Shown here: positions 2,595-58,357 of the stretch, in pieces
How positions within the stretch are numbered: position 1 is the first letter of the stretch
Layout of the letters: each line of letters opens with the position of its first letter
IMG/VR virus record: IMGVR_UViG_3300030381_000254
Span: 69,982-133,981 of that record
From: a virus
Direction: 5' to 3' (one strand)
DNA: 64,000 nucleotides
Translations under genes and position numbers: made by a program
The notes under the pieces: generated by a model
Told to the model about the DNA's origin: nothing
The model's input: only the letters and a program-made list of their open reading frames with translations
Database searches by the model: none

Positions 2595-5324
2595 TTATAC
2601 ATCGAAAAAACCATCTGTAGATGATACTTTCTTAAATTTAACTTCATTACTTTCTCCAAGAGATAATTGATCTCTAGTAACATTATGAGGATTATTACTA
2701 TTGCTTATATGAGAATCTATCTTATCGGAAATTAATTTTATTTGTGAATCTAATGCTTTAAGACAATCAATTATAGTTGTTTTTCCATTTAAATAATTTG
2801 TTCCAGATAAACTTGGTAAAGATCCGTCTTCTGAAGTTCCAATAGTATCTTTTACTTTTTCAATAGAACTTTTTATACTACTTAACTCACTATTTAAATT
2901 ATATACATTACTTATTTGTATTGCTTTATATCCAGAATTAGATAAAAAACTTTCCCCAGTTCCATCAAAAATAATTTTATCTAATTTTATTTTATCTGCA
3001 TTATTCATGAGTCCGGGAGGATTTCCATCAACTCCAGAAACTTCACTTATAATCAAATTTCCATCACTAGAAGGATATAGTAAATCTTTATTAGTACCCA
3101 ATTGAATAGACTTTACTACTTTTAAATTATCAATTTTTACGTCTAAATCACTTATTTTCCCCTCTAAACTACTATTAGTCTCGTCTATTTTAGTATTTAA
3201 TTGAGTATCTGCGTTTTCCCTATCAATAATTTCTTGATTAACTTTATTAGTTAACTCTGTTATTTTATTATCAATTCCTCCTATTGTAGAATCTTCTAAA
3301 TTATTTAGTCTAACTTTATCTTCCTTAGACATTAATCCATCTAATGTTTCTGTAGCATTTGGATAAAGTCTTATAGTACTATCACCAGAGTTAGAGTAGA
3401 GATATCCATATGTTCCATCATTACTGAACTTAATACCAATTTCTCCTTTATTACTTAAATTAGGAGTAGATGAATCTGGAATAATCTTACTAATAATATC
3501 TGATACAGATCCATCAATTTTATCTATAGTAACACCTAATTCTATGTCTTCATCTGTATGCTCAATATTAATTGGATAAATATTATTTTCTCTACTAACA
3601 GTTTTTATTTTTTCAGATAGATAATTAGCAGGACCGTTTGCGGTTACTTTTACTTTCCCGGATTCTTCTGGCAAAGAAGTTTTAGATATAGTTATGTTAT
3701 GTCCTTCCGATGTAATTGAAGATATATATTTATTATTCTCTTCTTCCCCATTACTAATAACTACATTAGGTATTATTAATTGGGATTTAGTAACTTTTAT
3801 AGAATGATCATTAACAGATATTCCAGTTACATAATTATTAGATATTTCTTCTCCACCAGTAATAGATAATCTTGGTAAATCTGAAGTAGTTCCTGATAAC
3901 TTAGTTCCAGAAAGATTAACACTTGATATATATTTTCCGGATTCTGCAGTAACTGACCCACTTAATGATACCTTAGACGTTTCTACTACATGTCCTAAAT
4001 CGTCTATCTTTACAGTAGTAACAAAAGAACCACTGCCTCCAGCATCATTCCCAGAGGATGGTTTATCTTGATGTGATAATGTTCTAGTAGATCCTAGATC
4101 ACCTCCTCCAACTAAACCTTTTCCTGGAAGAATAGCTATAGAGGTTTTTGCTAAATTGGATAAGGATAATCCCGAATCTTTTACTAATTTTCCAGTATTT
4201 CCATTAAAAATTGGAATATTATTGTTTACACAGCTTGACGGCCCAACTACAGCACCATCAATATTTGTTTGAACAACAGTCCAATCTGAATCATTCTTTA
4301 CAGAACCATCTTTTATACAAATAATTAAATCTCCAGGCTCTAATACTTCATCTCCTACATTTGGAGCACCTATTAAAGATAGATAAACATCTCCAGTAGT
4401 ATGAGAACTTGGCAATTCAGTTATTGTTCCACCATTACCTATAGTTCCTTTAAACCTAAGAGCTATTGCTGCCTGTATCTTATCTTGAATTTCTGCTATA
4501 ACGAATTCTGTAGTAGCTAGTTGCTTAGTATTAGTTCCTTTACTTGCTGTGGGTGCTTGTGGTACCCCTGTGAATACTGGATTATTAATAGGAGCTTTAT
4601 TATTTAACTCATCAGTTAAATTAGTAATCTGAGATATACTGTGTGTATGATCTGAAAGTGTAGTATTAATTACAACATCTCCACTAAAATCTGATCTAAC
4701 ATTACCATTAACAGCTCCTTTAATAGTTATAGATTTTGGATTTTGAAATTTAGTAGTTGTTCCTGAATTTCCTGATATATTAATCTGCTCTGGATGTACA
4801 TGATCAGCTCTTGACCAATCATTTTTTGTTCCAGGAGATCCACTACCTGAATTTATTTTTGGAGTTTCATTACTAGATAATGGAATATTAATTGTAACCT
4901 TATTAGATCCATCAAATTCTCCTGTTGAACCCCCTTGAAAAATTAATTTATTTTTTACTTTCCCTGCAGAATTAACTATACCACCACCATCAGTAAATGT
5001 TATATCATTACTAGATTTTACATGTCCTACAGTATCCCCATTAGCTAATAATAATTCATGAGAACTAAATGAATTCTCTAATGAATTAATTATAGAAGAT
5101 ATATTATCTATAGATTGAGTTGTAGCAATTACATCGAAACAAGAATCTCCAACTCCATTATCTTTACCTATTGCAAGAATTACTCTAGCATCTTCTTCAG
5201 TTTTTCCATATATTGCTACTGCAGGTTCACCTTTTTGAAATATAATATTTCTTAGAGCCTGTAGTGCTTCCTCTTCAGTACTAAAATATTCTTCATTTTT
5301 CTTTAAAACAATTCGAGCTGCCAT
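2595..5324 (-). CDS. Tail fibre or tail spike-like protein, 909 aa
   Basis: Long Ser/Gly/Thr/Asn-rich protein with a predicted beta-rich composition. It has an NPHxVT motif near the C-terminus like the giant fibre. Its N-terminal roughly 60 aa resemble the N-terminus of ORF 20736..21314 (EEAL.AL...GE..AV.Y...V.LAI.K...GD). Confidence 0.55.
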   Translation of the reverse strand: MAARIVLKKNEEYFSTEEEALQALRNIIFQKGEPAVAIYGKTEEDARVILAIGKDNGVGDSCFDVIATTQSIDNISSIINSLENSFSSHELLLANGDTVGHVKSSNDITFTDGGGIVNSAGKVKNKLIFQGGSTGEFDGSNKVTINIPLSSNETPKINSGSGSPGTKNDWSRADHVHPEQINISGNSGTTTKFQNPKSITIKGAVNGNVRSDFSGDVVINTTLSDHTHSISQITNLTDELNNKAPINNPVFTGVPQAPTASKGTNTKQLATTEFVIAEIQDKIQAAIALRFKGTIGNGGTITELPSSHTTGDVYLSLIGAPNVGDEVLEPGDLIICIKDGSVKNDSDWTVVQTNIDGAVVGPSSCVNNNIPIFNGNTGKLVKDSGLSLSNLAKTSIAILPGKGLVGGGDLGSTRTLSHQDKPSSGNDAGGSGSFVTTVKIDDLGHVVETSKVSLSGSVTAESGKYISSVNLSGTKLSGTTSDLPRLSITGGEEISNNYVTGISVNDHSIKVTKSQLIIPNVVISNGEEENNKYISSITSEGHNITISKTSLPEESGKVKVTANGPANYLSEKIKTVSRENNIYPINIEHTDEDIELGVTIDKIDGSVSDIISKIIPDSSTPNLSNKGEIGIKFSNDGTYGYLYSNSGDSTIRLYPNATETLDGLMSKEDKVRLNNLEDSTIGGIDNKITELTNKVNQEIIDRENADTQLNTKIDETNSSLEGKISDLDVKIDNLKVVKSIQLGTNKDLLYPSSDGNLIISEVSGVDGNPPGLMNNADKIKLDKIIFDGTGESFLSNSGYKAIQISNVYNLNSELSSIKSSIEKVKDTIGTSEDGSLPSLSGTNYLNGKTTIIDCLKALDSQIKLISDKIDSHISNSNNPHNVTRDQLSLGESNEVKFKKVSSTDGFFDV

Positions 5325-38812: not shown

Positions 38813-40438
38813 ATGGCAGAAGGAAAAAAAATTATTAAAGGAGCTGAATCACGTGAGAAAGTAATTAGTGGTGTTATCAAGATTGCAGATGCAGTAAAAA
38901 CAACTATTGGTCCCGCAGGAAAACATGTAGTAATTGCTAACAGTATGACTGGTCCTGAAATTTCTCGAGATGGTAGTATTGTTAGTAAATCTATATCTTT
39001 TAAAGATCAAGAAGAAAATATTGGAGCTCAGATTGTTCGTAAAGCAGCTGCAAGTACTGAAGATCAAGCTGGTGATTCAACCTCAACTACAGTAGCTCTC
39101 ATTGAAGAAATGGTGATTAAAGGTCAAAAAGCAATTCGTACTGGAGCTAATGTAAATGAAATTAAAGATGGTATGAAGAAAGCTCAGAAATGGGTTACTA
39201 ACTATATTGCTAAGAATTCTATTAAGGTAGATGGTGATCTTAATAAAATTCATAAGGTAGCAACAATTTCTGCTAACAATGATTCTACTATTGGAGATCT
39301 AATAGTATCATGTATGGAAAAAATCGGAACTGATGCAGAAATTCAAGCAGATTATTCTTCTGGTATTGATACGACTATTGATATTGTTCAAGGGTTTAAA
39401 CTTACTAAAGGATGGTCTAGTCCACAGTATGTAAATAGTCCGTCTGATGCAAAATGTGTAATGGAAAATCCATACATTATAGTAGTTGGAGAGAATATTA
39501 GTAATTTCAATCAGGTAGGTCCTATTATCGAACCTTTATGTAAAAGTGGTCGTCCTTTCTTGATTGTATGTAATGATATGTCTGATCAGGTAAATGGTAT
39601 TTTTATTCTTAATACTCTTCAAGGAAATATTCGTTGTTGTGTAGTTAAAGGAGTAGACTTTGGAGATAATAGAAAAAATATTATGGCGGATTTAGCTGTA
39701 TTTACTGGTGGAACATATTTGGATCCAGAAAATGGAATTTCAATCAATCAGGCTACATTAGAGGATTTTGGTACAGCAAATAAAGTTGTAGTATCTAGAG
39801 ATTCTTGTATTATCTATGAAGGAAATGGAGATAAGAGTATTATTAGTGAAAGAATTGAAACTTTGAAAAATCGAATTTCTGATCCTGACATTAGTGATTA
39901 CGATAAGAAGAAATATAGCTCTAGATTATCTCAATTAGCTGGGGGTATTGGATTAATTAAAGTTGGTTCTGCTAGTGAAATTGAAAGGGCAAATTTAAAA
40001 GCAACCGTTGAAGATGCTATTTTGGCATCTAAGAGTGCTTTGGCAGAAGGTTGTTCTCTCGGATCTGGATATACTTATTTCAAAGCATCACTTGAATTGG
40101 CTAAAGATAAGGAGTTCTGGAAAACATTGGTTGATGATGAGATTGAAGGAGCAAAAATTCTTCAAGAATCATTGCCAATTATTATGAAATCCGTAGTAGA
40201 AAATTGTGGAGTATCTCCTGATGTAGTATTAGAAAAGATTAAAACATCTAAACCTGGTGTAGGTTTCAATGCAAAAACAAAGAAGTATTGTAATCTTGAA
40301 GAAGAAGGTGTTTTAGATTCTTCTAAAGCATTAAGAGTAGCACTCGAAAATAGCGTATCTGCTGCATCTATGATATTATTGATTGATTGTACAGTTGTAG
40401 ATGAAGAAGATAAAAACGAAGATAATTTAATTAAATAA
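38813..40438 (+). CDS. groEL: Chaperonin GroEL-like, 541 aa
   Basis: The N-terminus KIIKGAESREKVISGV...TIGPAGKHVVIA...GDSTSTTVALIEE matches the GroEL ATP-binding motifs. It lacks the C-terminal GGM repeat. Confidence 0.8.
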   Translation: MAEGKKIIKGAESREKVISGVIKIADAVKTTIGPAGKHVVIANSMTGPEISRDGSIVSKSISFKDQEENIGAQIVRKAAASTEDQAGDSTSTTVALIEEMVIKGQKAIRTGANVNEIKDGMKKAQKWVTNYIAKNSIKVDGDLNKIHKVATISANNDSTIGDLIVSCMEKIGTDAEIQADYSSGIDTTIDIVQGFKLTKGWSSPQYVNSPSDAKCVMENPYIIVVGENISNFNQVGPIIEPLCKSGRPFLIVCNDMSDQVNGIFILNTLQGNIRCCVVKGVDFGDNRKNIMADLAVFTGGTYLDPENGISINQATLEDFGTANKVVVSRDSCIIYEGNGDKSIISERIETLKNRISDPDISDYDKKKYSSRLSQLAGGIGLIKVGSASEIERANLKATVEDAILASKSALAEGCSLGSGYTYFKASLELAKDKEFWKTLVDDEIEGAKILQESLPIIMKSVVENCGVSPDVVLEKIKTSKPGVGFNAKTKKYCNLEEEGVLDSSKALRVALENSVSAASMILLIDCTVVDEEDKNEDNLIK

Positions 40439-44606: not shown

Positions 44607-45050
44607 ATGACAACTCTTCAAAATGATATTTTAGAAATATATAATTCATTAGTGGAGTTTTCAGACAATACTGTTAAATCTAATTTTCCTGTACCTATAA
44701 CAGTTAGGTATGAGAGAGAATCTAGATTATTAATTATGGAACAAAAAGGTAAGTCAGTATATTTAAATCTCCCTATATACTATTGTTTAGCATTAGAAGA
44801 TTTAAAAAAACCGACATATCTTTTACCAGAAGATTATGACTATCTAATGTCAACTCTCCAATCATTAATTGCATCTGGAGAGTTGATAAAAGATAGAACA
44901 TGTGTTAGTCCTGAAAACTATGGATTTGATGTATATGCAGTAAATATAAATGAAATGTATAAAGGACCAGGATTAATTGGACAAGTAAGATTTATTTCAG
45001 GTACATCTTGGTTTTTTAAGTATAGGACAAGAAAAAAGTATAAATTATGA
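44607..45050 (+). CDS. Hypothetical protein, 147 aa
   Basis: ORF only. Confidence 0.35.
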   Translation: MTTLQNDILEIYNSLVEFSDNTVKSNFPVPITVRYERESRLLIMEQKGKSVYLNLPIYYCLALEDLKKPTYLLPEDYDYLMSTLQSLIASGELIKDRTCVSPENYGFDVYAVNINEMYKGPGLIGQVRFISGTSWFFKYRTRKKYKL

Positions 45051-53710: not shown

Positions 53711-54843
53711 ATGTCAGTATCTCTTGAGTTACTAACCGATGAAGCAATCATCGATTATACTAAAAGTGATGGAAAGGATAGAGTTCTCTATAATCATAGA
53801 GACTTAGACTTAAAGTATAACGGTATACAACCTATTTCTGGTGGAGTATATGATGTTGAAATATTCGGATCTCCTATGGAAGATAGATGTATCTGTGGAA
53901 AAATTCGACAACCTTCTATGGAACCTTGTCCTAATTGTGGAGCTAGAGTATTTTCTAGAGAAGAGGGACTTAGAAGATTTGCCAGAATAGAATTACCTTT
54001 CTATTATTTGAATGATTTGCGTTTTGATATCTTTAAAGAATTATTTGAAGATATATTTAAAGAAAGCAAAATAGTTTTAGATTTCTTCGGGGATGATCTT
54101 AGAAGAAATGGTTATAGTGCGAGAGGAGCAAAGAAATTAGGTATTAAAGTATTCGATACCTGCCAGTTTGATTATAATCCTACTACAAAAGAGCTTAAGA
54201 TTTCTGAATTTATAGATGATGAATCTAAATGTTCTTATGAAGGACTTATGAAGATTATAGAAGAACATTTTCCTGGTCGTCTCGTAGAATATAAAAAGTT
54301 GATTAATAGGTATTACTTAGTACAGCCAGCTATGATGAGACCTTTTACCCTTGGTGTAAAAAACGGAAAAAAGATAATGGGATCTCATAAACTTAGTATC
54401 TGGTATTCTATTATAATTAGACTTTGTTGTGTAGAAGATACTAAATCTAATGACTTAAATTATGCGGAAGTAACTTCTAAATTTAAGACTCCAGGTGAGA
54501 AAGTTAGATATACAGCACTTCTAAGAGCACTTCTTAATACAGGTAAGAAAGAAGCTACGGCACTTCTTAATACGTCTAAGGAAAATTTAGCGCGTGATCT
54601 TTATTCAGTAAGAACAAAGAGTTCTGCTAGATGTCCAATCATTCCTAGTACTACACTAGCTATTGATGAAATTTCTATACCTATTCATATTGCATATGAA
54701 ATGTGTAGAGAAGGATTCTTAGACTATTTAATGAAAGAATTAAATTTTACTAAAGAAGAGGCTCTTAAAGCAACAAAAGAAGAGTATAATAATCCGGAAA
54801 CTTTAAAGATGTTTAAAGAATTTGCGGAAAAACAAATCGTACT
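53711..54843 (+). CDS. rpoC: RNA polymerase beta' subunit, exon 1 (N-terminal Zn-finger region to ...EKQIVL)
   Basis: CICGKIR...CPNCGARV matches the beta' N-terminal Cys4 zinc finger. The exon ends with U at 54843, which pairs with the intron IGS GGTACG at 54858..54863. Confidence 0.7.
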
Positions 54844-55728
54844 AGATTTTTCACTGGTACGTTAGGTGAAAATCCTGAAACAAATGTAAATTACGTTTGT
54901 TTAATTTTGTGTATTGCTGGAAATTAATTATAATTAATAATCAGCAGTTGAATCTATTATAAAAGCAGAATAATAAATATAAAAAGAAGAGCTTATGAAG
55001 ATATTTAGGATTAATTTATTTTCTACACTATCTTCTACAACTCCATGGAATCGATCTGAACATATGAAACAACTTCATGCTGAAGGAAGATATAAAGGAA
55101 CTTCTAAGATAGGGTTGTGGAATGTTAGCGAAGAAAAAAGACAAAGAATGGCTAATATACGATTAGCAAATTCTTTAAATAAAAATAGTAAAGGATATGG
55201 TAGTGAGTGGCATATGAGACTAGCTAACAGAACTTTACTGCATAATAAATTTCAAGGAGAACAGGGTTATTTATACTTTGTTAGATTTCCTATGAGTATC
55301 AAGGTTGGTTTTTCAAAAAATTGGGAAAGAAGACTGAATTATCAATTACCTAACTTGAATCATATCTTAGGTGGTAAAGTTATAGCAATCATATCAGGAC
55401 CAACAAATGATTTAGCCGATCTTGAATTTGATACATTTGTTAAATTTCAAAATTATACAAAATTATCAGAGGATGGAACTAGATATACTGAATTCTTAGA
55501 CTTATCAGTAAGAAAAGAAGTTTATGAGTTCTTAAAATCTAGAGTATCTGATAATAATGAGTTAGAATTTTTAATACAGAATCCGCTTTTATAATAAATT
55601 CAATTCAACGACTATGGACAAAACTAAGATTAGTGTTGTGATAACCTAGTTTTTGATAATATAGTCTTGCAGGATAGAGATATCCTGGTAAAGAATGATT
55701 ATAATGACGTAATATAATCATTCTACAG
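54844..55728 (+). mobile_element. Group I self-splicing intron 1 in rpoC (885 nt) carrying a homing-endonuclease ORF
   Basis: P element ATTGCTGGAAA is at 54913, Q element AATCAGCAG at 54938, R element TCAACGACTATGG at 55605 and S element GATAATATAGTCTT at 55655. R and S form the P7 pairing GACTAT/ATAGTC. A P9 hairpin lies at 55669..55687. There is a U at -1 and an omega G at 55728. Joining the exons gives QIVL|VNRQPSLHEY..., which aligns to E. coli HPVLLNRAPTLH. Confidence 0.75.
54995..55594 (+). CDS. Intron-encoded putative homing endonuclease (GIY-YIG-like motif)
   Basis: A free-standing ORF lies inside intron 1 between the Q and R elements. GYLYFVRF...IKVGFSKNWERRLNYQ resembles GIY-(10)-YIG-...R. 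Confidence 0.5.
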   Translation: MKIFRINLFSTLSSTTPWNRSEHMKQLHAEGRYKGTSKIGLWNVSEEKRQRMANIRLANSLNKNSKGYGSEWHMRLANRTLLHNKFQGEQGYLYFVRFPMSIKVGFSKNWERRLNYQLPNLNHILGGKVIAIISGPTNDLADLEFDTFVKFQNYTKLSEDGTRYTEFLDLSVRKEVYEFLKSRVSDNNELEFLIQNPLL

Positions 55729-56709
55729 AGTAAACCGTCAACCTTCATTACATGAGTATAGTACTTTTGCAATGAAGTTAAGAATTCATGAGGATTATAC
55801 AATACATTTTCCTATTCAAGTATGTGAACCATTAAATGCTGACTTTGATGGTGATACTGTATCAATACAGTTAGTTCCGCCTGAAGCAGCTGAAGAGACT
55901 TATGAAAGAATGAGTCCTAGATATGTTACAATTTATAAAAAGAATAATGAACCTATTTATAAATTTAATCACGAAACACTTAATGGTTTAGCAGTTGCGA
56001 CTGAATATTCATACTCTGATTTGGAAGAATTGAAAGATCCTAAATATTTTTATACTGATTATGTTCAGTTATTAAAGGATGTAGAAATAGAAAAGAAAAT
56101 CAAAGTTGGAACACCGATTGTATTTACAGGAAAAATAGGGAATGTAGATTATCAATCTAAAGTTACAAGTTATGGTAGACTTCGTATTTCTAAAATACTT
56201 GATGCTGATATAGATAAAATTGGTATATTTAGTAATGAGTTTGAACGTATTAGTGCTAAGAGTGCAGCTAAGTTAAGTCTTTATTTAAATCAATTCGAAG
56301 ATGGAGTTGAAAAGAGAAAAGCACTTACTAAATTTGCTCTTCGCGTAGTTAGCATGGCTGGAGTAGTAACGTTTGATTATAAAACACTGTATGCTGATTG
56401 TGATACGGAGACTTATAAGAGAATTTGTAACGTAGCAGATTCTAAAGAACTTACAGATAAACAGAAACTTTTGATAATGACTCAAGAATTTAAGAAATAT
56501 GAGGACGAAGTTTCTGCAAGTTTTAGTTCTGATTTGAAAAATGAACTTGATAGAGCAGCTCGTGTTAAATTATCATCTATTGTAGCAATGTCAATGCCAC
56601 AGTTTATAACTTCAGGAGTTGATGAAAAACCTGTAATTACTCGTGGAACATTGTTATCTGGTTACACAGAGAAAGATTATCAATTACATGCAATAGAAAA
56701 TCGAAGCTT
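55729..56709 (+). CDS. rpoC: RNA polymerase beta' subunit, exon 2 (catalytic NADFDGD region); 3' end approximate
   Basis: VNRQPSLHEYSTFAMKLRIHEDYTIHFPIQVCEPLNADFDGD aligns to E. coli NRAPTLHRLGIQAFEP...NADFDGD. A bridge-helix-like SGY motif lies near the end. The exon end was chosen at the U at 56709, 70 nt upstream of the P element, the same spacing as in intron 1. Confidence 0.6.
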
Positions 56710-57201
56710 ACAATCTATTAAAGTTAGTGGTGTTAAAATATTAAGCTCGAATATGGTAGCCCACTTAAAATAACAATTAAATGCTGGAAAGAATATGTAA
56801 ATATAAAATCAGCAACTTATATAATCTTTAAATCTATTTTATGGCGAGATTGGAAAAAGTTTTAGAAATTTTAAAAGTAATTGGAGGAATTGCTAAAACT
56901 ATGCTTTGTGGAATGGAAGAGTATAGAAGAATTCAAGAAACAAGAGCATATAGAGAAAATCAAAAGAAAAAAGTAAAATATTTACCAAAGCCAAAGAAAA
57001 GATATAAAAGAAATAAATAAGATCAACGACTATGTATTGTTAGATTAAACAAAGTTTAATCATGATATAGTCTAATCCTATGTGATAAACATAGGCAGGA
57101 TGGGATTTTAGGAAGCGCTTTTAATTTATATTATAGCCTAATATCCTTGAATGACCTTCGAGCGGATATTTAACTCGTCAAATATCTTTCCTTTTAAATA
57201 G
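56710..57201 (+). mobile_element. Group I intron 2 in rpoC (~490 nt), boundaries approximate
   Basis: P element AAATGCTGGAAAG is at 56779, Q element AAATCAGCAAC at 56806, R element ATCAACGACTATG at 57022 and S element CATGATATAGTCT at 57061. A P9 hairpin lies at 57076..57095. G at 57201 is the only omega-G candidate consistent with phase, given the in-frame stop at 57170. The intron contains a 59-aa Lys-rich ORF at 56841..57020. No canonical U.G P1 pairing was found, so the 5' splice site could instead be at 56718 or 56724. Confidence 0.55.
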
Positions 57202-58357
57202 CTACGTATATCATGAAGGAGAAGATACTGAAAATGATGGTCTTTTGATACCTAGATACAAAGCTTTAGGACGTACTGCACCTAATGGAAAAGTATATCC
57301 AGAAAAGCCATTAGTAAACGGTTCAGAAGATGATTTGGTACCAGTTAGATCAATCATTACAAAAAGAAAAGGTGACACTCATACGATTACTCCTGACCTT
57401 ATAGGAACTAAATTCAAATTTACTGATGGAGCAGCTATTGGTCTTTCTTTTGCAACATCCTTAACTGAGGGAACAACCCAAAGTGCATTAGGATTAAAAC
57501 ATGGAGGTCATGAACGTGTTTTACAAATGGACGGAATACTTAAAGCTCCTAAACAATGCGAATTTAGAGAAGAAGGAAGATGGATTTATTTAAAAGTTAG
57601 AGGTGGAGAATTAAAATATCCAAGACCTGATAACTGGGTAAGTGTAGGAAAAGAAAAGTTTGAAAAGGGAGATACTATAGGAACAGCATATAATACTACA
57701 TCTCCTATTTATAAACTTAATGCACTTATTAAATTGATGAGAGCAAAGGGATCTGATGGTACTAGATACTTTGAAAAAGATAATGTTATAGTTTCTGACT
57801 CATACTGTTATAAATCGGGGACGATTCATTACAAGGAGACTAAGGATGGTGATATAGAAGTATGGATTGGAGATATTCAATATGATTATAATCCAATGTG
57901 TATGTATTATTATCCTGATGGTACTGAAATAAAGAAATATCAAAGATTCTGCAGTGGAGTGGTTAATATGAATCACGTGATTCCAGGTATGAATAATAAT
58001 TTGAATGATATTTATTTAATTTTCAGAAATCAATTCTATACATTAACCGACGGAAAATTTGCATCTACTGGATTAACTGATTTACATTCAACTCAAGAAG
58101 AATTAGTAGAGTTATTGTTTACTGGTTTAACTGATATTATTGTAGATACTGATACTCAGAAAATTGAAGATATCCAATATTTGGGAACTCAATCTGGTGT
58201 ATTAAATAAGAAGTCATTCTATACAGTATTATCTTATGGTTATTCTAGTAGAGTAGTTAGTAGAGCCCTCAAGGGGGATTTAAATCTTAGTGGTGATGTT
58301 ATGACAGAAACTATATTAGGATTATTGTTAAATAATAAACTTGATGATAAAAAATAA
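57202..58357 (+). CDS. rpoC: RNA polymerase beta' subunit, exon 3 (trigger-loop region to C-terminus); 5' end approximate
   Basis: ...YVYHEGEDTENDG resembles E. coli VVTEDDCGTHEG. GAAIGLSFATSLTEGTTQSALGLKHGG aligns to [28 protein letters not shown]. The ORF caller placed the start at the TTG at 57245. Confidence 0.6.

Follow-up and report, generated by a model that had tools for sequence, protein, structure and literature searches.

The group I intron of the T4 td gene carries the open reading frame (ORF) of I-TevI looped out of helix P6a; the U at the end of its 5' exon pairs with a G in the internal guide, and G is also the last nucleotide of the intron. In phage PhiPA3, an intron in the gene for the beta subunit of RNA polymerase (RNAP) encodes gp210, an HNH enzyme that has been shown to act in competition between phages (Science 2024, PMC11620839). 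T5orf172 proteins constitute a subfamily of the GIY-YIG nucleases with N-terminal DNA-binding modules, and they occur as free-standing putative homing endonucleases in ICP1 vibriophages (PMC10448857). According to the main text of the report on the Jug phages (PMC12880540, Sci Adv 2026), 136 genomes of this group hold 2513 group I introns (~18.5 per genome, ~206 nucleotides (nt) on average), and metatranscriptome reads back the splicing of 37 of 76 predicted introns; group Beta has a lower GC content and fewer introns, terL, nrdD and DNA polymerase are named as split genes, and RpoC serves as a marker. Here, we describe a stretch of 64,000 nt from the virus record IMGVR_UViG_3300030381_000254 (“the window”, in which all coordinates are given unless another locus is named). 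We conclude with high confidence that positions 54844–55728 constitute a group I intron (intron 1) with an endonuclease-type ORF, and that this intron lies in the gene for the RpoC-like beta' of a jumbo phage from the human gut. Several lines of evidence lead to this conclusion: the restoration of the reading frame with an attendant gain in Pfam score, adherence to the boundary rules of group I introns, thermodynamics, covariation, the existence of uninterrupted distant homologs, and the published intron richness of the clade.

An interrupted beta' gene

The annotation of this locus poses a question: is the beta' gene split into separate coding units, or is it a single gene with an insert that is removed from the RNA? 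Gene callers report separate ORFs of 384, 199, and 333 amino acids (aa). The first beta'-like ORF (53711–54865) reaches its stop codon 22 nt past position 54843, i.e. inside the insert. Exon 1 terminates with ...CGTACT at 54843, the final U lying within a split CT|A leucine codon; the insert closes with ...CTACAG, and exon 2 opens with AGTAAACCGTCAACC at 55729. When 54843 is joined to 55729, the two parts form a single frame through the CT|A codon, reading ...AEKQIVL|VNRQPSLHEYSTFAMKLRIHE...NADFDGD (in a longer readout across the junction, ...AEKQIVL|VNRQPSLHEYSTFAMKLRIHEDYTIHFPIQVCEPLNADFDGD...). The peptide predicted to span the junction is QIVLVNRQPSLH, and the corresponding joined-exon (intron-less) sequence at the insertion site is ...AAACAAATCGTACTAGTAAACCGTCAACC.... 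The boundaries of the insert and the restoration of the frame are thereby established, and the join and the terminal G of the insert are those that a preliminary description of this DNA had specified.

Domain searches corroborate this join. Against the Pfam model RNA_pol_Rpb1_2, the unspliced pieces score 15.9 and 22.4 bits, each under the 25.3-bit cutoff; the spliced protein matches without a break at 70.3 bits (E = 2.9e-19; residues 301–429, profile positions 3–153 of 166). Furthermore, the earliest possible start in the downstream beta' frame, according to the ORF list, is the ATG at 55772. The conserved VNRQPSLHEYSTFA codons (55730–55771) lie upstream of it with no start codon before them, so they could not be translated without splicing, and a simple gene split would therefore forfeit them. 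An uninterrupted state does exist elsewhere, as the beta' genes of distant phages (Yersinia YerA41, Rhizobium RHph phages, Ralstonia RP13, and Vibrio phages) align across the junction in one tblastn segment at 27–37% identity. A megablast search of the locus against GenBank phages returned no match. Once intron 1 and a second intron (intron 2) are removed, the beta' protein has 1113 aa. The earlier proposal that the gap in beta' is an intron, not a gene split, is thus upheld by the in-frame join and the Pfam match, along with the covariation detailed below.

Table 1. Coordinates of the features of the beta' locus in the window.
Feature	Coordinates	Strand	Description
beta' exon 1	53711..54843	+	zinc-ribbon N-terminal part and start of Rpb1 domain 2 (from ORF list, splice arithmetic, and Pfam on the spliced protein)
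intron 1	54844..55728	+	885 nt; group I architecture; omega-G at 55728; RF00028 sub-threshold match at 55561-55687
P1	54838..54861	+	exon CGTACT 54838-43 / guide GGTACG 54856-61; U54843.G54856 at splice site
P2 and P2.1	54863..54902	+	P2 54863-66 / 54874-77; P2.1 hairpin 54878-54902
P3, 5' strand	54905..54910	+	TTTTGT; partner ACAAAA 55618-55623; pseudoknot with P7; invariant in close relatives
P4 and P5	54915..54946	+	P4 TGCTGG 54915-20 / TCAGCA 54941-46 (P and Q elements) around P5 hairpin 54923-38
P6 and P6a, 5' strands	54948..54966	+	P6 TTGAAT 54948-53; P6a TATTATAAAAGC 54955-66
199-aa intron ORF	54995..55594	+	in P6a loop; putative homing endonuclease
P6a and P6, 3' strands	55585..55603	+	P6a GCTTTTATAATA 55585-96, overlapping ORF stop codon; P6 ATTCAA 55598-603
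catalytic core, 3' half	55605..55668	+	R element TCAACGACTATGG 55605-55617 with P7 GACTAT 55610-15; P3 ACAAAA 55618-23; P8 55625-53; S element GATAATATAGTCTT 55655-55668 with P7 ATAGTC 55661-66
P9 and P9.1 hairpins	55670..55724	+	P9 55670-87, CAGGATA...TATCCTG; P9.1 55692-55724
beta' exon 2	55729..56733	+	VNRQPSLH...NADFDGD... to bridge helix ...SIKVSGV
intron 2	56734..57153	+	420 nt; core TGCTGGAAAG...AATCAGCA; R TCAACGACTATG 57023-33; S GATATAGTCT 57064-73
beta' exon 3	57154..58357	+	PSSGYLTRQ... to stop codon

RNA structure of intron 1

All of the core strands are present in the canonical group I order. The P, Q, R, and S elements reported in the preliminary description were found where it had placed them, with the GACTAT and ATAGTC cores of R and S forming P7, as were the P9 hairpin and the guide GGTACG paired to the exon end through a U.G wobble. 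P1 comprises 6 base pairs (bp), and its U.G pair occurs in all 14 distinct variants that we aligned (see below). A 2-bp extension of P1 (54844–45 / 54854–55) covaries between G-C and A-U in relatives (columns 12/24 of the alignment: AU in 13 variants, GC in one). The introns of all relatives close with ...ACAG, i.e. with an omega-G. The trinucleotide ACT at 54853–55 is able to pair with AGT of exon 2 and is thus a candidate P10 strand; relatives have AGUU or AAUU opposite AAUU. From these sequences, a short P10 in intron 1 is plausible.

For folding, most of the ORF was deleted from the intron, and the resulting 302-nt ORF-less construct was folded without constraints. Its minimum free energy (MFE) structure recovers the helices expected of a group I intron (P1, P2, P2.1, P4-P5, P6-P6a, P7-P8, P9, and P9.1) at -81.4 kcal/mol, compared to -48.8 ± 4.2 kcal/mol for 100 dinucleotide shuffles (z = -7.7; none of the 100 was as good). 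P3 is invisible to this method because, here as in every group I intron, it crosses P7. The ORF is enclosed by the 12-bp stem of P6a, the 3' strand of which overlaps the stop codon, and it is accordingly looped out of P6a.

To place these helices in an evolutionary context, IMG/VR was scanned with the spliced protein, which yielded 46 loci (L001–L046) on contigs of up to ~400 kb. The same intron is present at the same codon in a deeper lineage of four loci (L047–L050), whose beta' proteins are 62–63% identical; across the lineages compared, exon identity ranges from 62 to 93%. Covariation was assessed in an anchor-registered alignment of 14 distinct variants, with controls in which the 3' partners were slid by 1–3 columns. 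MAFFT, even when N-padded, lost register in the hypervariable hairpins; hence, P6/P6a, P8, and P9.1 were judged sequence by sequence.

Across the 14 variants, pairing in the named structure was 97.2%, compared to 35–46% in the slid controls, and 14 pairs were compensatory (changed on both sides), compared to 1–4 in the controls. None of 500 column shuffles attained any of the five observed measures. The covarying regions are the P1 extension, P2.1 (both-side changes at 9 of 12 pairs), P5 (ATTA/TAAT, AGAA/TTCT, and GGAT/ATCT), and P9 (G-C/A-U at columns 267/282). Among the helices judged individually, P6/P6a comes in four versions of unrelated sequence, all of which form a long stem (z = -4.3 to -8.1), and P9.1 differs in sequence between variants with its hairpin retained; P8 alone is thermodynamically undistinctive (z = -0.7 to -1.6). 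The deep-branching locus L048 extends this pattern with compensatory changes in three further helices: P2 is TGGG/CCCA there and TAGG/CCTG in the window, P3 is TTTCG/CGAAA as opposed to TTTTGT/ACAAAA (a compensatory change from U-A to C-G), P6 is CTAAAGG/CCTTTAG as opposed to TTGAAT/ATTCAA (fully compensatory), and P1 is kept through a change from A-U to G.U. We therefore consider a conserved and covarying RNA structure to be established for this element.

The L048 copy (3605–3677 of that locus) is a compact version of intron 1 (q379), with ~7 nt between the 3' strand of P3 and that of P7; it has essentially no P8 and no P9.1, and a downstream ORF of 747 aa is called from an ATG inside P9.

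Intron 1 is very probably self-splicing. In the folded pre-mRNA, the exon end CGUACU would pair with the guide GGUACG, so that the U.G pair of P1 marks the splice site. Catalysis would fall to a core built from the P3-P8 and P4-P6 domains, in which P7 (GACUAU/AUAGUC) would bind guanosine. An external guanosine would attack after U54843; its place in the binding site would then be taken by the terminal G55728, and exon 1, now free, would attack the 55728|55729 boundary, aided by the short P10 (AGU/ACU). The product would be a continuous mRNA for the 1113-aa beta', which would also require the removal of intron 2. The putative nuclease encoded in the P6a loop, of the T5orf172-type GIY-YIG class, would most likely act as a homing endonuclease. 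Splicing catalysis, nuclease activity, and homing are what we infer from the features of the locus.

The intron ORF and the introns of related phages

The N-terminal half of the intron ORF is helical, and its C-terminal domain (~aa 90–195) is predicted to adopt a GIY-YIG/T5orf172-type fold, with the alpha/beta arrangement of GIY-YIG enzymes present in the predicted structure. The ORF matches PHROG 681 (“endonuclease”) over residues 88–195 with E = 1.8e-7. It has 308 close homologs, but in a set of 1.84 billion representatives its family amounts to just 24 clusters at 50% identity. T5orf172 matches were found in 7 of 10 distant family members, six of them weak. The distant member P0138, which aligns to residues 21–173 of the ORF with E = 9e-16, scores above the curated cutoffs of both MUG113 (PF13455) and T5orf172 (PF10544). 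Invariant in 35 homologs are Y94 (in GYLYF), K103 and G105 (KVG), R112/R113, E144, and E166, with catalytic roles assigned by pattern only. Matches of the ORF to NMDA receptors (E ~0.5–0.8) were dismissed as noise. On the strength of its remote homologs and predicted fold, we assign the ORF to the GIY-YIG/T5orf172 group. Values of dN/dS were 0.08–0.22 (12 of 15 ORF pairs were computable), with dS often above 1; the sequences thus point to a protein that is maintained by purifying selection and is not decaying. Most likely, it is the homing endonuclease of intron 1.

The ORF has diverged more than its surroundings. Between the window and close relatives, it is 72–80% identical in amino acids with dS above 1; the flanking exon 1 is 93% identical. 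Variants of P2.1, P5, P9, and P9.1 occur in mixed combinations among loci. Together, these two observations suggest that intron variants have recombined.

Each of the 45 IMG/VR loci spanning the insertion site is interrupted at the same codon, by an insert of ~0.9, 1.7, or 2.1 kb. The 0.9-kb class is the type found in the window. The 1.7-kb class shares this RNA and this ORF family but has an additional 261-aa HNH/NUMOD3-like ORF in the same loop, such that one intron loop houses two nuclease genes. In L001 (5067–5852 of that locus) and other 1.7-kb variants, this second ORF has a 4-nt overlap with the stop of its T5orf172-like neighbor, and its product combines an HNH motif (HHILPK...) and NUMOD3-like repeats with a C-terminal tail that resembles a helix-turn-helix. 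The 2.1-kb class consists of intron 1, a micro-exon, and then a second intron. Uninterrupted genes were encountered only in very distant phages (~30% identity), and the q379 intron is the only beta' intron common to all three lineages.

Intron 2 interrupts the bridge helix of beta' and has the same P/Q/R/S core as intron 1; its removal gives SIKVSGV|PSSGYLTRQ. Two deep-branching loci, L048 and L049, are uninterrupted at this site (SIKQSGTPTSGYLTRQ). This empty-site allele, in conjunction with the U/G rule, fixes the junction at 56733|57154, replacing a candidate at 56731|57161. Within intron 2, GCTCGA (56745–50) can pair with TCGAGC of exon 3 (57158–63), and a very basic ORF of 59 aa (56841–57020) has weak matches only, to DUF5420 and PHROG 24944. 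Intron 2 matched nothing in Rfam in permissive mode (E ≤ 1). In relatives, the intron at this site spans ~0.4 to 1.9 kb.

The beta' genes of the close relatives (L001–L046) have 5–7 interruptions of more than 100 nt and 7–14 AACGACTA core motifs per gene, distributed over roughly 18 codons. Many of these interruptions are ORF-less mini-introns of 146–181 nt (e.g. L001 6661–6838, 6953–7107, 7234–7414, and 9897–10042), and the window presents the intron-less allele at all of these sites. In L047 (3790–4197) and, at the same position, in L050, a group I-like intron of ~408 nt separates PLNA from DFDGD, thereby splitting NADFDGD, the universally conserved catalytic motif of beta'. Elsewhere in the window, the GACTAT...ATAGTC pairs at 39373–39440 and 44838–44910, which look like P7 strands, lie inside the uninterrupted ORFs 38813–40438 and 44607–45050 and were set aside as chance occurrences.

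The phage represented by the window is probably of the Jug type, an assignment made because contig sizes (up to 393 kb), human-gut origin, GC content (28.5%), and intron richness all match; it possibly belongs to the low-GC, intron-poor group Beta.

Competing explanations and comparison with known systems

Several results weigh against the identification of this element as a mobile, endonuclease-bearing group I intron. The candidate P10 has just 3 bp and could not be discerned in L048. Neither P4 nor P7 varies, making covariation uninformative for both, and the same is true of P3 within the 14-variant set. The ORF itself has no direct match to any GIY-YIG model in Pfam (E ≤ 1), NCBIfam, PDB sequences, or PDB profiles. 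The preliminary description had called it a GIY-YIG-like ORF in a peripheral loop. Its location in the P6a loop is confirmed; since T5orf172 is a subfamily of GIY-YIG, “GIY-YIG-like” is correct at the level of the superfamily and fold, while a direct match to the family models is lacking. No intron-less allele was present in the 45 IMG/VR loci, the 4 deep-branching loci, or 21 human-gut metagenome contigs, and the fused exon junction, whether from spliced RNA or an intron-less allele, was absent from both public assembly collections. Finally, no Rfam family reached its gathering score anywhere in the window or in three relatives.

The last of these results merits scrutiny, as the preliminary description had proposed beforehand that the lack of a group I hit in Rfam would count as refutation. 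RF00028 is the only plausible Rfam family to match intron 1. In permissive mode, it aligned to the 3' half of the intron at 19 bits (E = 0.029), compared to a threshold of 50; taken literally, the proposed refutation was nearly realized. The alignment places R, P8, S, and P9 correctly and does not bridge the ORF. How sensitive is the model to introns of this kind? The ORF-less sister introns of relatives (146–181 nt), which have the same core, also fall below the gathering score: RF00028 is the sole family that matches them, and it aligns them end to end over the exon gaps, yet they score only 14–20 bits. Because of this, we conclude from these sequences that RF00028 is insensitive to this very AT-rich intron lineage, and the absence of an Rfam hit is therefore not a valid ground for refutation here. 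A distant blastn search of the ORF-less intron against phages gave short, chance-level matches only.

The description of the intron as mobile fared less well. Presence/absence polymorphism at the insertion site, the mark of a mobile intron, was not observed in the sampled relatives: all 49 related loci and the 21 contigs carry the intron, and present-day homing is consequently unsupported. If homing established the intron at this codon, it presumably did so in the past.

This fixation lends some credence to a scenario in which the intron splices, but its ORF no longer serves as a homing endonuclease and is instead a domesticated T5orf172 protein, for example a cutter of competitors' RNAP genes (in the manner of PhiPA3 gp210), a maturase, or a DNA-binding regulator. 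We consider this somewhat unlikely, although it has several points in its favor. No homing targets are visible, and purifying selection on the ORF persists nonetheless. The addition of a separate HNH gene to the same loop in some relatives suggests that the constant ORF may not supply mobility. There are also precedents, both for an intron endonuclease that functions in phage competition (PhiPA3 gp210, PMC11620839) and, as reported in PMC8096241, for domesticated T5orf172 proteins. Opposing it, the candidate GIY-YIG catalytic residues among the invariant positions of the ORF (Y94, R112/R113, E144, and E166) are those that an active nuclease would be expected to keep, and the sampling of related intron-less phages may be incomplete.

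A kindred proposal, to which we ascribe a still smaller likelihood, is that the q379 intron and its ORF are an anciently fixed, vertically inherited part of the clade's RNAP gene and not a transient selfish invader. It is prompted by the occurrence of the intron across lineages at 62% beta' identity, the purifying selection on the ORF, and the lack of a visible intron-less target. Were it true, the intron could have a domesticated role, for instance as a weapon against co-infecting intron-less phages (cf. PhiPA3 gp210); alternatively, it could provide splicing-dependent control of phage RNAP production.

Could beta' be made as two or three polypeptides after all, with a free-standing nuclease gene between them and RNA motifs that are relics of a dead intron? 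The separate ORFs reported by the gene callers would comport with such a gene split, and no spliced RNA was seen among the searched assemblies. Split beta and beta' genes do occur in jumbo phages of the phiKZ and AR9 types. However, the break in the present gene falls within a codon, the VNRQPSLHEYSTFA codons have no start and would be lost, and the pieces that singly fall below the Pfam threshold give a continuous domain when joined. Moreover, helices kept by compensatory changes over the observed range of exon divergence would be unexpected in a dead relic. We therefore judge a true gene split to be very improbable. A different element altogether is scarcely credible, even though inteins and other insertions in Jug phage genes are reported in PMC12880540: the exon-1 frame meets a stop too soon for an intein (ORF end at 54865), neither a reverse transcriptase nor an Rfam match to group II introns is present, the precise in-frame boundaries require neither the target-site duplication nor the terminal inverted repeats of a transposon, and a gene-inactivating insertion would hardly be fixed in all genomes when beta' is a single-copy marker gene of the clade.

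If the group I intron interpretation is correct, these jumbo phages, abundant in the human gut, make beta' as a single 1113-aa protein from a gene of three exons and not from three genes, and automatic annotation divides it into pieces that are left under domain-detection thresholds. The general Rfam model for group I introns misses a whole AT-rich lineage, and candidates of this kind should not be dismissed for want of a hit. RNAP would join the essential genes colonized by introns in this clade, and a T5orf172-type GIY-YIG gene is documented inside an intron. Finally, the relatives offer a natural series of one to at least seven introns in the same gene, a useful resource for work on intron spread and fixation in phages.

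How does the locus compare to better-characterized systems? With T4 td/I-TevI, it shares a group I intron in an essential phage gene, an ORF of the GIY-YIG superfamily in P6a, the U.G pair, and the final G. It differs in that the predicted catalytic domain is C-terminal and of the T5orf172 subtype, whereas in I-TevI the GIY-YIG domain is N-terminal and the C-terminal domain binds DNA. In addition, P7.1/P7.2 are not evident in intron 1, and the host gene encodes RNAP beta' and not thymidylate synthase. The resemblance to PhiPA3 gp210 lies in the combination of a putative group I intron and an endonuclease ORF, inserted where the gene of a multisubunit phage RNAP is highly conserved (PMC11620839); here, however, the gene is that of beta' and the putative enzyme is of the GIY-YIG/T5orf172 type, as opposed to beta and HNH. 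The nucleases of ICP1 belong to the same subfamily, and distant members of the window ORF's family match PF10544 and PF13455, but the ICP1 genes are free-standing, whereas the window ORF is intron-borne and too diverged for the Pfam models. The likeness to the Jug phages is the broadest: human-gut contigs of ~360–400 kb, ~28% GC, the standard genetic code, many short group I introns in essential genes, and HNH/GIY-YIG genes that are either stand-alone or intron-borne. The main text of the Jug report (PMC12880540) does not describe introns in rpoC, the structure of intron 1, or its T5orf172-type ORF. Intron 1 is thus an element of a well-known type, in a phage clade already noted for its many introns of this type, and it leaves current concepts of them unchanged.

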